From the NCBI RefSeq assembly GCF_041248615.1, contig NZ_CP158426.1: a DNA stretch of 64,000 nucleotides; one strand, written 5' to 3'. The position numbers are program-made. Shown piece by piece: positions 25,901 through 28,900 of the stretch. How positions within the stretch are numbered: the first letter of the stretch is position 1; each line of letters starts with the position of its first letter. This DNA is from Escherichia coli. GTDB taxonomy: Bacteria > Pseudomonadota > Gammaproteobacteria > Enterobacterales > Enterobacteriaceae.

Positions 25901-28900
25901 CCGTTGGAATAAACAGCCACTTCGGAAGGATTGCCAGTATCATCAATGATGCTGACAGTGCCGTTTTCCTCTCTCATTTCCAGCATGAATACTGTTGCGA
26001 TCAGCCATCTCCACATAATGACGTTATGCTGTGATGTGTAATCGAAATATCCCTGGTTGCCGCCATCGGCTATAGCGAGATGTATTGACATGCCTTCATC
26101 TGGTTTATCGTCATAATCCCCGGCATCCAGACGATTTACGGCATCAATATATGAGACGGTCTCAACGCGTTCTGTCATGCCATCGTTGCTGCGGTGCATG
26201 ATGTTTACGCCGTCAGGCGTTGCTTCTGCATGGAAGGTTAAGAAATTATTCATGTTTCGCCTCGCCTGAATGATTCTGTAACTCATATTTGCCCAACAAT
26301 TCGTCCGCTTCCTGAATAGCTTCTGGTACGCCATTGAGCAGTGACATAACCGCGCCAATCATTAACTTGTCTCTGTTGCTGGGGCTGGCCCCTTCAAGCC
26401 AGAACCCTAAAACAGTCTGAACCTGTTCGATGCGACATTGCGCTTCAATGAGCTGGATGTTGGTCATTTCGCACTCTCCACATCGATTAAACTGATATCT
26501 ATCAGGGAGGTAACTTTTTGTAGCCAGCTATTGATTACTGTCGCCTGCTCCCCTCCCACCGAGGGAATAATCTCATTCATCACATGAACCAGACCTGTGC
26601 GCGCTCTGGTAAGCCGTTCAGTCGCGCAATCTGCGGGAGTGAATGTGTCTGGATATGGCTCTTCACTCCCCAGCAATGATTCAATTTCCAGCTCACACGG
26701 ATGACGATAAATTAAGTTGATATTCATTTTTCACCCCCAAGAATTACCAGCTCTGCACGGGCATCGTTAACCAAAGATGAGCACGCTTTAATCGCATCCA
26801 CGACATCAGTAGCGTCCATTTCTTCAGCCGAAAGACTGACAGCAACCAGGACAGCCGCTGCTTGCTCGATTAATTGAAGTGCGGACGTAAGGCGAGGGGT
26901 ATTAATTGAGTTATTCATTGGTTGCCCCCGTTTTTACTGGCATTTCGCCACCTTCCAGCAGGAAATGAACGTCACGAACGGCGAGATCCAATATCGCGAG
27001 TAACGCCTTCAGTTTTTCGTCTCGTGAGGGAGAGTTGCTCACCAGAATGTCATTAATCACTTCTGTCAGTGTGATGATCTGGCTTGTGCGTTCGAGGGGG
27101 TCCATATGCACATCGTAGGTTTTAATCATGTGCCACCTCCATGCGGATACGACCAGCAAAAAAGCAGACGTGATCGCGCACCAGAGAACGGCGAGCATCG
27201 CGTTCAGACTCGGCAGCAATATGATGAATTTTGGCGGTAATTGTCGGGCAATCGCGGCGAACTGCGGCGATAATCCAGATAAATTGCGGTTTTTGGGTAG
27301 GGGTAGTAGCCAGCATGTGGCAGCCTCCTTGATTGATGGTTTATAGCCACCGCCGGAGGTCCTAAGCTCGCTGGCGGTGGACTGTACAGGGTTAGGACTA
27401 CTGGCAATCAAGGAAACCAGCCTGACCGAAGTCAGCCCCATACAGCCCACCATTGATAAGGTGTGCGTGTGCGCCGATACAAAAAAAGACGCTGGCGCGT
27501 CATGTATCGCCTCGATTGCCTGCGGGGTCCTAATCCCGGCACCCGTTTTATGAGGTGCCTTATAACCATAAACCGTGTTGCCGCATAACGGCAAGCTCTT
27601 TTTTATGGACTCCGAAAACTCACTATTGGAAGAACCAGATGCACAATACATCGCGCTCATTTCGTTAACGTCACGCGCATGGACGAAGGTTTTTGTGGAG
27701 TCACTACGCGAGAAGAGAAAGCCATCTACGACCAGAAATTCTCTGGCGCAGCCGCTGACCTTCTCAACGCTAACACCATCGACCGTAATTTCTGACATGG
27801 TTAAGGCATCCGCTCCTACCACCAGCAAATGACAAACTTTGCTTGTATCTGCTGTATTAATGCCTGACTTTGCTGTCATATTGCTGGATTTTGGCGACAT
27901 ACCAGCCAGTGAAAATATCTTCTTCTGGACGGTTAGCATTTGTTAACCTCCGCGAACTCCTTCATGAAGCGCGCCAGCGGTTGTACGCATGGCGATTGAT
28001 ACCCGTCGCGATAAAACGTCACTCGGTTGTGAGACACGCTTTCGACAGTAACGAGTGCTCCGTGGGCATCTTTGTAGCGTTTTTGTGGTTGTGGTATTCC
28101 TGTTGGCTTAGACATTGAGCGCCTCCAGACGCTTGGCGAGCCAGCGTTGCGACAGGTGGGTGAGTTCTCCTTTGCGCTGCTCATATTCCATGCCCATATC
28201 AATTAACGTGATATTGGTGCTTTCGAGATATGAGAGGTGCTCAAGCTGTTCTGCGTTCATATGGTCGCGAGGTTCGCCAGAATAGCCATTTATCCGCGCC
28301 CACTGCTTAGCAGTTAGCCCTCCAAGAACGATACGAGAAATCATATTGCTCTCGTTTGTGTAGTGGTGTTGCTGCGTCGTTTTCCCCTGCTCGGCACGGG
28401 CCATATTCAGCGCATCGCACATTGGCTTAAAGTTGTTTGCGGCACTGATACGGGCTTTTAGCTGGCGACGATAGCGGGCGGCGATTTCAGGCACGCTACG
28501 CTGTAATTCTTCCTCGCACTGGATGAAATAACGACGGATAGCGCGACCCTGATCATTGCGTTCGATCATTGCCAGTTCTTTCGCCATTCCGACACTTAAC
28601 AGATAGTCTTTGCCGGGTCTGCCAGACTGCTTAATCTTGCTGTAAGCCGCGCCATTCGGGCTTTTCCCCAAATTTGGGGAAATTGTTTTATGGACTGAGT
28701 AATCGTGCCCAATGGTGAAGTCATATTCAGAGATGCGATCAGTGATCCATGTAGAGAAGTCTTTTCCCACGCCCAACGCTTTGTGTAACGCTTTTGCGCT
28801 AACAATATTGGTTTCACGCCCACCGATGTGACCAGGAATAACCGGGACAATTGCGGCAAATTCATTACCGTTAATTGTGCCCAGAGAGGCGTTCAGATGA

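Follow-up and report, generated by a model that had tools for sequence, protein, structure and literature searches.

The question raised by this locus is what a strongly structured segment, located within a long open frame of an Escherichia coli island between dinD and yicC and ahead of a replication operon, is there to do. In the window (the whole stretch of 64,000 nucleotides that was analysed), a preliminary description had recorded a GC-rich segment with convergent terminators and had considered either an RNA, be it antisense or an attenuation leader, that governs access to the replication operon, or a frameshifted gene. We consider, with a probability of approximately 85%, the structured region to be the immunity (self-repression) switch of a P4/PICI-like island. 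The design of the switch is of the P4 and P1 immunity type and, as such, is already known and of an ordinary kind.

All genes of the region are located on the minus strand. Two RNA families were identified by Rfam above their curated gathering thresholds, an isrK/seqA-type leader (27558 to 27482) followed by a C4/CI antisense RNA (27457 to 27370), which, together with the alignment to P4, bears out the proposition of an RNA at the entry to the replication operon. The elements of the two RNAs and their target sites are the following:

27482-27558, minus strand: isrK/seqA-type leader (Rfam RF01394; 63 bits, gathering threshold 50, full model 1-77 matched).
27558 to 27539, minus strand: leader hairpin 1.
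27533 to 27527, minus strand: a1 (UUAGGAC), in the loop of leader hairpin 2.
27520 to 27510, minus strand: b1 of the leader.
27501 to 27488 (stem), then U7 at 27487 to 27481, minus strand: intrinsic terminator of the leader, equivalent of P4 t1, from the terminator scan.
27370-27457, minus strand: C4/CI-type antisense RNA (Rfam RF01695, a family to which P4 CI RNA belongs; 80.2 bits, gathering threshold 45, full model 1-87 matched), with a 16-bp closing stem carrying two hairpins.
27414 to 27405, minus strand: b' (UCCUUGAUUG), in the loop of C4 hairpin 2.
27398 to 27392, minus strand: a' (GUCCUAA), in the single-stranded junction of C4.
27347-27380, minus strand: hairpin with target a2 (UUAGGAC, 27365 to 27359) in its loop, the 5' arm sharing 5 nt with the C4 closing stem.
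27324-27335, minus strand: target b2 (CAAUCAAGGA, 27335 to 27326), overlapping the icd Shine-Dalgarno sequence AAGGAGG (27330 to 27324).

Both family matches score far beyond chance (E = 9e-15 for C4 and 9e-12 for isrK). Further matches to a group II intron (26 versus 40 bits), RyhB, MIR8562, Trp leader and CRISPR-DR10, all far below the gathering scores, were rejected as noise. Besides a score above threshold, the leader possesses the two 5' hairpins and the 3' intrinsic terminator that characterize the isrK / P4 seqA leader; the reverse-strand terminator noted earlier is real and forms the 3' end of the isrK match. All three hairpins are present in the leader fold, with the isrK segment alone not better than shuffled sequences (z = -1.0). 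The strong structure that had been claimed for 27317-27606 was recovered upon folding, as the 88-nt C4 segment reaches -42.4 kcal/mol (z = -4.4; none of 200 shuffles equally stable) and the 259-nt transcript z = -3.6. The GC enrichment exists but is only modest, 0.54-0.565 compared with about 0.47-0.51 in the flanks. Equally, the minimum-energy fold reproduces the C4 architecture with its long closing stem, two hairpins, exposed b' loop and single-stranded a' junction, and the C4 consensus shows compensatory changes at 13 of 28 pairs among 26 relatives. Directly after the closing stem follows GCCA (27373 to 27370), as in P4, the only sequence feature that supports processing by RNase P.

The arrangement of the target sites is that expected for RF01695, with a1/b1 (seqA) upstream and a2/b2 (seqC) downstream over the ribosome-binding site of the first gene, AAGGAGG being placed 7 nt before the icd ATG. 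The complementarity of a' extends over 7 nt with a1 and over 7 nt with a2; b' matches b2 at 10 of 10 positions and b1 over 6 nt exactly or over 10 of 11, the eleventh being a G-U wobble. In 92 distinct related modules, which combine 15 a' types and 26 b' types into 37 a/b combinations, the sites co-vary: 98% of the modules have a cognate match of 7 nt or more for a1, 83% for b1, 96% for a2 and 80% for b2, compared with 0.8-7% of cases for non-cognate pairs (7% for b2). In 87 of 88 modules the stem of the a2 hairpin measures 6 bp or more, with 37 different sequences forming it. Family membership of both RNAs, their structure, the four complementarities and the co-variation of the latter are directly supported by these data.

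Where transcription of the two RNAs starts bears on the second terminator of the preliminary description, which had been placed on the forward strand. Two features overlap at this site:

27565-27604, minus strand: predicted constitutive promoter, equivalent of P4 PLE, from alignment to PLE and positional conservation (A6 27604 to 27599; -35 TTGCCG 27594 to 27589; 18-nt spacer; -10 TATGGT 27570 to 27565; start near 27558).
27578-27594, plus strand: perfect palindrome TTGCCG-N5-CGGCAA, the putative stem of the forward-strand terminator, overlapping the -35 hexamer and spacer of the minus-strand promoter.

The promoter aligns base for base with P4 PLE (TTGCCT/TATAGT). With 8 of 12 consensus matches it was missed by the default promoter scan, and it was accepted only after its positional conservation had been found: a TTGnnn-17/18-TAnnnT pair is located at a constant 31-nt distance from a1 in most of 76 distinct upstream regions, so that the conserved position of the promoter is a direct observation. 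Of the forward-strand terminator, the hairpin at 27578-27594 and a T6 tract at 27599-27604 do exist, but the T-run begins 4 nt past the stem, and on the minus strand the same bases constitute the -35 hexamer, the spacer and the upstream A-tract of the PLE-aligned promoter. Read literally, the two hairpins with T-runs would be a convergent terminator pair insulating the antirepressor-side operon from the replication operon. Both motifs are present, and the palindrome, which is unchanged in the sister island L003, folds better than shuffled sequences on the plus strand (z = -2.7; -2.2 on the minus strand). We nevertheless regard such insulation as very unlikely: no plus-strand gene ends at the site, the T-run is detached from the stem, the bases double as elements of a positionally conserved promoter and the upstream operon is translationally coupled into a long ORF that crosses the site. 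Furthermore, terminator-like sites within 5 kb are not above chance in the terminator scan (7 found versus 4.9 +/- 2.4 expected), and because the scan is not enriched, two terminators have no statistical weight on their own. Convergent terminators are thus not the best description of the site, and the forward-strand terminator is more likely promoter architecture.

Downstream of the RNA switch, the minus-strand operon begins with two small genes:

27122-27316, minus strand: Icd/Kil-like gene (64 aa; NCBIfam NF033153), the first translated gene past the RNA switch.
26911-27135, minus strand: gene of 74 aa, next in the operon, its ATG overlapping the stop codon of icd (ATGA), its reading frame that of the long ORF.

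The Icd-like gene belongs to NF033153 (phage_ICD_like), the Icd/Kil family of cell-division inhibitors, with 71.7 bits at a cut-off of 25. Its product is 45% identical to P4 Kil (E = 8e-11), and PHROGs 1743 and 6928 are common to both, which makes the Kil/Icd homology another direct observation. For the 74-aa gene, no family match was obtained in NCBIfam and PHROGs. The operon headed by the icd-like gene runs to the primase (24951 to 22192).

These elements are crossed by one long frame:

26911-27939, minus strand: eta-like long ORF of 342 aa, starting upstream of the internal promoter and reading through the leader, the C4 RNA and a2/b2.

The 342-aa frame described earlier (27939 to 26911) exists. 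Its ATG at 27939 is preceded at 7 nt by GGAGG (27951 to 27947) and overlaps the DUF4222 stop (27935-27933); the frame overlaps the 64-aa Icd-like ORF (27316 to 27122), which is read in a different phase, and shares its phase with the 74-aa gene that begins at ATG 27135. The supposed conflict between this frame and an RNA dissolves, as in P4 the switch includes the translation of a long ORF, eta, that likewise crosses the promoter, the leader and the CI RNA (PMC10111431). Because eta translation belongs to the P4 switch, translation of the 342-aa frame would not speak against the RNA. As with the nested genes of P4, the frame begins ahead of the internal promoter and keeps one fixed register across leader, RNA and target sites; relative to the C4 core, this register is that of P4 eta (L004 2335/2380-2979). 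The frame in the eta register is open in 66 of 92 modules compared with 4 of 92 for each other frame, a conservation that is directly observed. On the other hand, kil is the in-frame end of eta in P4, whereas icd/kil (27316) of the island is out of frame through a 1-nt difference from P4 before the ATG. Only part of the nested arrangement is hence present in the island, and chance could account for the 65 codons that stay open over icd.

Whether the long frame is a decayed or frameshifted pseudogene left by recombination, as an alternative in the preliminary description had implied, can be judged from its copies. In favour of decay, some genomes carry the equivalent stretch in RefSeq as a partial pseudogene, the frame of icd departs from the P4 arrangement and the relative L128 carries a different, in-frame fusion. 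However, all 15 of the island copies, with four different RNA cassettes among them, keep the frame open (the copies are closely related, so that roughly four independent events, one for each distinct cassette, stand behind this count). The 333-nt upstream part is free of indels among the 15 copies, the sole indel between cassettes comprises 39 nt, a multiple of three, and the start is provided with a strong Shine-Dalgarno sequence and translational coupling. Decay of the frame is on these grounds highly improbable, and the frameshifted gene is not supported.

Equally, the 342-aa ORF might be a genuine regulatory protein of the Ash family with the RNA-like features as by-products of coding. RefSeq names it 'ash family protein', Pfam Phage_ASH matches residues 124-219 (E = 5e-14), the frame is conserved open and synonymous changes make up a larger share in this frame (35%) than in the others (12-26%), a weak excess. 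The matching residues correspond, however, to 27570 to 27283, so that the Pfam domain and the pair of Rfam matches occupy exactly the same stretch, and cassette swaps preserve the RNA pairing yet rewrite the peptide (GIRTPQAIEAIHDAPASFF... versus GIGVLKILKATYDAPSVFF...). The N-terminal third is in part an antisense reading of a terminase fragment (see below), P4 genetics put immunity on the RNA and NCBIfam holds no matching model for the 342-aa ORF, as it holds none for the plus-strand 75-aa ORF, the DUF4222-region ORF and a 70-aa ORF. With a translated frame and a functional product being separate claims, we regard an Ash regulatory protein as unlikely.

The immunity switch can be compared with several known systems. 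In P4, the immunity region had been considered analogous; the likeness holds, but it is one of homology rather than analogy, because the P4 region gives both Rfam matches in equal order and aligns from the promoter to the kil/icd start. This alignment comprises the island, P4, the sister island, the Stx2 phage F004 and phage D6, and with P4 covers promoter, leader, terminator, RNA, a2 hairpin, b2/SD and kil start. In both elements, a long ORF of equal register crosses all elements, a Kil/Icd homolog is the first gene, an alpA-like gene is located upstream and small genes followed by a primase downstream. The island differs from P4 in the a core (UUAGGAC versus GUGAGAA), in the gap between leader and RNA (24 nt versus 107 nt) and in that the long ORF does not share the frame of icd/kil and continues into the next gene. 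Between alpA and the promoter, the island has three extra genes (orf143, AntA/B antirepressor and DUF4222) and a 111-codon N-terminal extension; its primase is of the TOPRIM/DUF927 type, and no sid, delta or psu genes were seen in the island.

With immI of P1/P7, the island shares the C4 RNA family, for which the P1-like phage L002 scores 75.9 bits, and the a'/b' pair with a2/b2 over the icd ribosome-binding site. Heteroimmune P1 and P7 reportedly differ in a and b, as is said to have been described by Citron and Schuster in 1990, and the heteroimmune variants of the island type likewise differ in a and b. The isrK model is matched in the island, but not at gathering threshold in the P1-like phage. 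In P1, c4 is listed as targeting ant (PMC12197685); an ant gene downstream of c4-icd and under its control is not found in the island, where small ORFs and the primase, that is replication genes instead of an antirepressor, follow icd and the AntA/B-type gene (28941 to 28108) is located upstream. In the Gifsy-1 isrK-orf45-anrP module (IsrK, STnc1160), an isrK-type leader with terminator also precedes a processed RNA of ~80 nt (PMC4825925), and cis pairing between the leader and the downstream RNA occurs there as in the island fold (PMC4825925). This module, however, controls the antirepressor AnrP and, via AnrP, AntQ, with activation by the short RNA emphasised. A matching cassette occurs in Stx2-converting phages such as F004 (LC710661, annotated with C4 antisense RNA and isrK), with about 90% identity over 27558 to 27295, no difference in the a and b cores and an equal spacing of 24 nt, whereas the host element is a lambdoid phage with another regulatory protein downstream and unrelated flanks. 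Finally, Gram-negative and helper-embedded PICIs have the layout of Integration, Bro, Replication and Late zone in common with the island (Mageeney et al. 2023, PMC10111431). In PICIs with 'Bro zone' immunity RNAs, C4 and isrK Rfam matches are found inside Phage_ASH/Bro-network genes, and Late zones hold captured helper late genes (PMC10111431). This source was not found to mention the dinD/yicC site, a pac site or ejection genes of the P22 type.

For the island, a mechanism can be proposed in which processing, the way transcription terminates and the part played by translation of the long frame are modelled on P4, P1 and Gifsy-1. The weak constitutive promoter would start minus-strand transcripts near 27558, most of which would end at the intrinsic terminator (27501 to 27481) to give the 77-nt isrK/seqA-type leader. 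Read-through transcripts would be processed into a stable C4/CI-type RNA of ~80-88 nt. In P1 and P4, such RNAs are processed by RNase P and 3' trimming. The exposed a' and b' would pair with a2 and b2 on the mRNA of the own operon, and the icd/kil-like gene would not be translated, since b2 covers its ribosome-binding site. The untranslated RNA may then be stopped by Rho-dependent or RNA-assisted termination, such that the downstream genes up to the primase would stay off. Pairing with a1/b1 would provide feedback, either by enhanced leader termination as at P4 t1 or by free leader titrating the C4 RNA as with Gifsy-1 IsrK. Transcripts of the upstream operon (alpA-like gene, orf143, antirepressor, DUF4222), on the other hand, carry the start of the eta-like ORF, and ribosomes moving on the long frame through leader, C4 and a2/b2 would block pairing and termination. 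By analogy with P4, translation of the long frame probably lets upstream transcripts escape the RNA block, and firing of the upstream promoter would switch the replication operon on regardless of immunity.

Alternatively, the C4 RNA might not be the main repressor, and the terminated 77-nt leader might mainly act as a trans-activator in the style of Gifsy-1 IsrK: by binding a'/b' on C4 or on the long transcript, it would open the icd ribosome-binding site and turn the operon on. The leader matches the isrK model, the 259-nt minimum-energy fold pairs a1/b1 in cis with a'/b' as in 'structure A' of Gifsy-1 (PMC4825925), and IsrK activates orf45/anrP in trans (PMC4825925). Hfq binding and trans activity of the short isrK RNA are, however, known only for Gifsy-1 (PMC4825925), and in P4, the closest architectural relative (int, alpA, primase), the CI RNA is a repressor and seqA pairing enhances termination (PMC10111431, PMC4825925). 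We consider activation as the main role of the leader less likely than not; it is compatible with self-repression by the C4-type RNA, as the leader could be a C4 sponge.

An exchange of the immunity cassette is seen in the sister island L003, which is ~97% identical on both flanks and has the cassette replaced, with compensatory changes in all five elements and the 39-nt indel as the only one between the cassettes.

The long ORF also contains, in antisense orientation, a piece of a phage packaging gene:

27685-27791, plus strand: P22-type small-terminase (gene 3) fragment, antisense to the operon and inside the long ORF, from BLAST to P22 positions 4-110.
27685-27706, plus strand: candidate pac-site equivalent, the first 22 nt of the terminase fragment, covering annotated pac 4-25 of P22.

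The 22-mer is identical at 22 of 22 positions to the equivalent position of the full-length terS in L121, L122 and L124, which carry terS-terL-portal, and at 16 of 22 to P22; with the P22 pseudo-pac pattern (PMC11226127) it agrees at 16 of 17 positions. Its sequence thus corresponds to the pac of a putative helper at the equivalent place of gene 3. The island also carries P22-like ejection-protein genes. The plus-strand ORF 27575-27832 was rejected as a gene, being an out-of-frame terS remnant with a terS frame of only 68 codons between stops. A terminase fragment starting at pac and placed antisense within a long frame may be new; the literature search gave nothing specific on a pac-site copy or a P22-type satellite in E. 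coli, which is not proof of novelty. Judged from sequence, we tentatively suggest, at somewhat less than even odds, that the ~110-nt fragment may be a working pac for packaging by the terminase of a specific P22-like helper lineage and that, with the Stx2-type cassette swap, resident Stx phages and the island may cross-regulate each other via common C4 specificity.

In annotation, a well-understood RNA switch is masked by protein labels: RefSeq and Pfam use 'ash family protein', PHROGs uses 'transcriptional repressor', and the Pfam domain behind the labels is the translation of two Rfam RNAs. Out of 5,426 complete E. coli genomes, roughly 480 repeat this case. The a/b specificity code is highly variable, with its 37 combinations in 92 modules, and the clean cassette swap between near-identical islands indicates that satellites change their immunity group by recombination. 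The match of the island cassette to Stx2 phages predicts cross-immunity, which is testable. Equally, if the pac fragment is functional, the sequence by itself would tell which helper lineage belongs to a common E. coli island.

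The structured region at 27317-27939 carries an RNA-based immunity module on the minus strand, which also carries every gene surrounding it. An Rfam scan covering 14 kb at curated thresholds gave only two matches above these thresholds, both on the minus strand, and the immunity region of satellite phage P4 shows the same two matches in the same order.

RNAs, first gene and predicted promoter of the module
27594->27589 and 27570->27565, minus strand: predicted internal promoter (-35 TTGCCG, 18-nt spacer, -10 TATGGT), located by alignment with P4 PLE
27558->27482, minus strand: isrK RNA (RF01394), 63 bits against a threshold of 50, E = 9e-12, full model
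27457->27370, minus strand: C4 antisense RNA (RF01695), 80.2 bits against a threshold of 45, E = 9e-15, full model
27316->27122, minus strand: Icd/Kil-like ORF of 64 aa, directly downstream of the C4 region

The fold of the C4 segment (-42.4 kcal/mol, z = -4.4) has two hairpins on a 16-bp closing stem, with compensatory changes at 13 of the 28 consensus pairs among 26 diverse relatives. The reverse-strand terminator noticed in the preliminary description is present, as a stem at 27501->27488 with seven T, and constitutes the 3' end of the isrK match. Against NCBIfam phage_ICD_like (cut-off 25) the 64-aa ORF scores 71.7 bits, and it shares 45% identity with P4 Kil. The locus has no ncRNA annotation in RefSeq; Pfam PF10554 Phage_ASH (27283-27570, minus strand) overlies both RNAs, and PHROGs 1743 and 6928, which contain Kil/Icd, bear the name 'transcriptional repressor'. 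The protein-family labels at 27283-27570 on the minus strand go back to the former notion of a P4 'cI/ash protein'.

Two short segments of the C4 RNA are each complementary to one site in the leader and one site downstream.

Pairing segments
27414->27405, minus strand: b' (UCCUUGAUUG), hairpin loop of the C4 RNA
27398->27392, minus strand: a' (GUCCUAA), junction of the C4 RNA
27533->27527, minus strand: a1, loop of leader hairpin 2, complementary to a'
27520->27510, minus strand: b1, in the leader, complementary to b'
27365->27359, minus strand: a2, loop of the hairpin 27380->27347, complementary to a'
27335->27326, minus strand: b2, complementary to b' and overlapping the AAGGAGG Shine-Dalgarno sequence, which sits 7 nt upstream of the icd ATG

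The role of chance in this code was assessed on modules with the C4-core pattern gathered from IMG/VR, 92 distinct ones with 15 a' types, 26 b' loop types and 37 combinations. The a1, b1, a2 and b2 sites are complementary over 7 nt or more to the module's own RNA in 98%, 83%, 96% and 80% of modules, respectively, as against 0.8-7% overall for non-cognate RNA. Equally, the hairpin presenting a2 is present in 87 of 88 modules, built from 37 different stem sequences. In the window, 5 nt of this hairpin (27347-27380, minus strand) also belong to the C4 closing stem, in its 3' arm, and the two structures are therefore mutually exclusive over those bases; the hairpin may be the equivalent of the CI-dependent P4 terminator t4.

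The predicted internal promoter aligns with P4 PLE (TTGCCT, 18 nt, TATAGT), and RNA would start about 7 nt past the -10. A TTGnnn-16/18-TAnnnT pair stands at a constant distance from a1 (31 nt from the -10) in nearly all of 76 distinct upstream regions, 57 of which match at least 8 of 12 promoter consensus positions within unconserved surrounding sequence. The same bases had been described as a forward-strand terminator with no gene to terminate. No plus-strand gene does end there, and a terminator at 27578-27604 was judged unlikely: the T-run lies 4 nt off the stem, and terminator-like motifs are unenriched (7 versus 4.9 +/- 2.4 expected). For these reasons the plus-strand hairpin, a perfect 6-5-6 palindrome TTGCCG-N5-CGGCAA at 27578-27594 containing the -35, is read as probable promoter architecture, the plus-strand T-run 27599-27604 being the minus-strand A-tract directly upstream of the -35. 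The palindrome is possibly also an operator for a DNA-binding protein. It is identical in the sister island L003, and L042 has a similar one.

The 342-aa frame crossing the module, named 'ash family protein' in RefSeq, is no accident of this strain. A GGAGG lies 7 nt before its ATG at 27939, which overlaps the upstream gene's stop codon, and Phage_ASH covers residues 124-219 of the frame (27570->27283), that is, exactly the two RNAs with a2 and b2. In P4, the long ORF eta begins upstream of PLE, crosses leader and CI RNA and terminates with kil (PMC10111431); relative to the invariant C4 core, the 342-aa frame lies in the eta register. Of 92 modules, 66 keep this register open over at least 150 nt on the upstream side and at least 110 nt on the downstream side; each other frame is open in 4. 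Among island-family copies the frame is open in all 15 (12 distinct), spanning four different cassettes; its upstream 333-nt part has no indels, and cassettes differ in length only by 39 nt. Synonymous changes make up a larger share of the differences in this frame (35%) than in any other (12-26%). In P4, icd/kil is in frame with eta, whereas in the window it is out of frame with the 342-aa ORF, which runs across icd and reaches its stop in the frame of the next gene (ATG 27135); a P4-like fusion in frame is present in one relative, L128.

The alignment of P4 and the window spans promoter, leader, terminator, RNA, ribosome-binding site and the first kil/icd codons, and the module also occurs in P1-like phages, phage D6 and many Stx-converting phages. 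In P4, CI/seqA interactions terminate transcripts of the internal constitutive promoter; eta is translated only from an upstream late promoter, is translationally coupled to the alpA homolog, and prevents termination by being translated (PMC10111431). This scheme also fits the window. On the model of P4, P1 and Gifsy-1, occlusion of the icd ribosome-binding site would cause repression and the untranslated RNA would be terminated, a1/b1 pairing would provide feedback, and on upstream transcripts translation of the long frame would bypass repression. In Gifsy-1 the short leader RNA is a trans activator competing for the same pairing (PMC4825925), and for the 259-nt transcript of the window the equivalent pairing is predicted in cis. 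The type of mechanism is textbook (P4 CI, P1/P7 c4) and both RNAs are in Rfam; the instance is unannotated in RefSeq and not new in kind. C4 and isrK matches inside Phage_ASH/'Bro' genes of Gram-negative PICIs have already been reported (PMC10111431), and a 90%-identical cassette is already annotated as such in GenBank, where the record of Stx2-converting phage F004 (LC710661) labels the module 'isrK' and 'C4 antisense RNA'. The a/b specificity and 24-nt spacing of the window are common to this phage, at about 90% identity.

The surrounding genes, in transcription order, are as follows.

Gene order of the island
32074->30722, minus strand: integrase
29603->29385, minus strand: alpA-like HTH gene
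between the alpA-like gene and the antirepressor, minus strand: orf143
28941->28108, minus strand: AntA/B-type antirepressor
ending at 27933, minus strand: DUF4222 gene, directly before the structured region
between the structured region and the primase, minus strand: chain of overlapping small genes
24951->22192, minus strand: TOPRIM/DUF927 primase

The window matches E. coli 21AR0303 (NZ_CM132268) at 100% identity; there, dinD and yicC flank the element and the primase is followed 3' by P22-like DUF2824, ejection-protein and injection-protein genes and then by ImmA/IrrE and PerC genes. From this layout the element is a P4/PICI-like island. At least 80% of an 861-nt query around the module is present in about 480 of 5,426 complete E. 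coli genomes. Upstream of the alpA-like gene, 29600-29900 is very AT-rich (GC 0.25-0.33), and a regulated promoter equivalent to P4 PLL is likely placed there. The late zone directly 3' of the primase (16771-21607, minus strand) holds P22-like virion genes (DUF2824 protein, 225-aa protein, DNA ejection protein, injection protein) without capsid or terminase genes, a content that points to a P22-like helper. At the far island end, 13488-16708 encodes a PerC-family regulator, an ImmA/IrrE metallopeptidase with partner gene and hypothetical genes, which may be a cargo or defence module.

Antisense to the operon, at 27685-27791 (plus strand), lies a fragment of a P22-type small-terminase gene with about 87% identity to P22. 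Its alignment starts exactly where the annotated P22 pac site does (AF527608 positions 4-25), and the 22-mer GAAGGTTTTTGTGGAGTCACTA at 27685-27706 is identical to P22 pac at 16/22 positions, agrees with 16/17 positions of the published pseudo-pac pattern (PMC11226127) and is 22/22 identical to the equivalent position of full-length terS in three P22-like contigs with terS-terL-portal (L121, L122, L124). A full-length P22-type terS is present in 258 E. coli genomes. The island fragment always comprises terS nucleotides about 265-380, and other E. coli genomes likewise have it under the label 'ash family protein'. The 22-mer is conserved within the island family, with a single variable site in 12 distinct copies; an adjoining hypervariable patch (27708-27723) has 8 in 16 nt and resembles different terS alleles by copy (TRAEQV, TREEKA, TRAEDI). 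Together with the island's P22-like ejection genes, the fragment suggests that 27685-27706 may be a captured pac site for a P22-like helper, of which kind no report was found in a limited literature search.

The sister island L003 is about 97% identical to the window island on both flanks, and its a1, b1, b', a', a2 and b2 are all exchanged in a mutually compensating manner. The a pairing is UUGGCGU/ACGCCAA in L003 and UUAGGAC/GUCCUAA in the window, the b pairing UCUGAAGG/CCUUCAGA and CAAUCAAGG/CCUUGAUUG, respectively, and L003 has an extra 39 nt inserted between leader and RNA. The regions compared were 27322-27558 (minus strand) of the window, 2903-3180 of L003 and 2500-2740 of L005. The swap follows the heteroimmunity logic known from P1 versus P7, and from P4. 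The immunity cassette is a recombination unit, and cross-immunity between the window island and Stx2-type phages is predicted.
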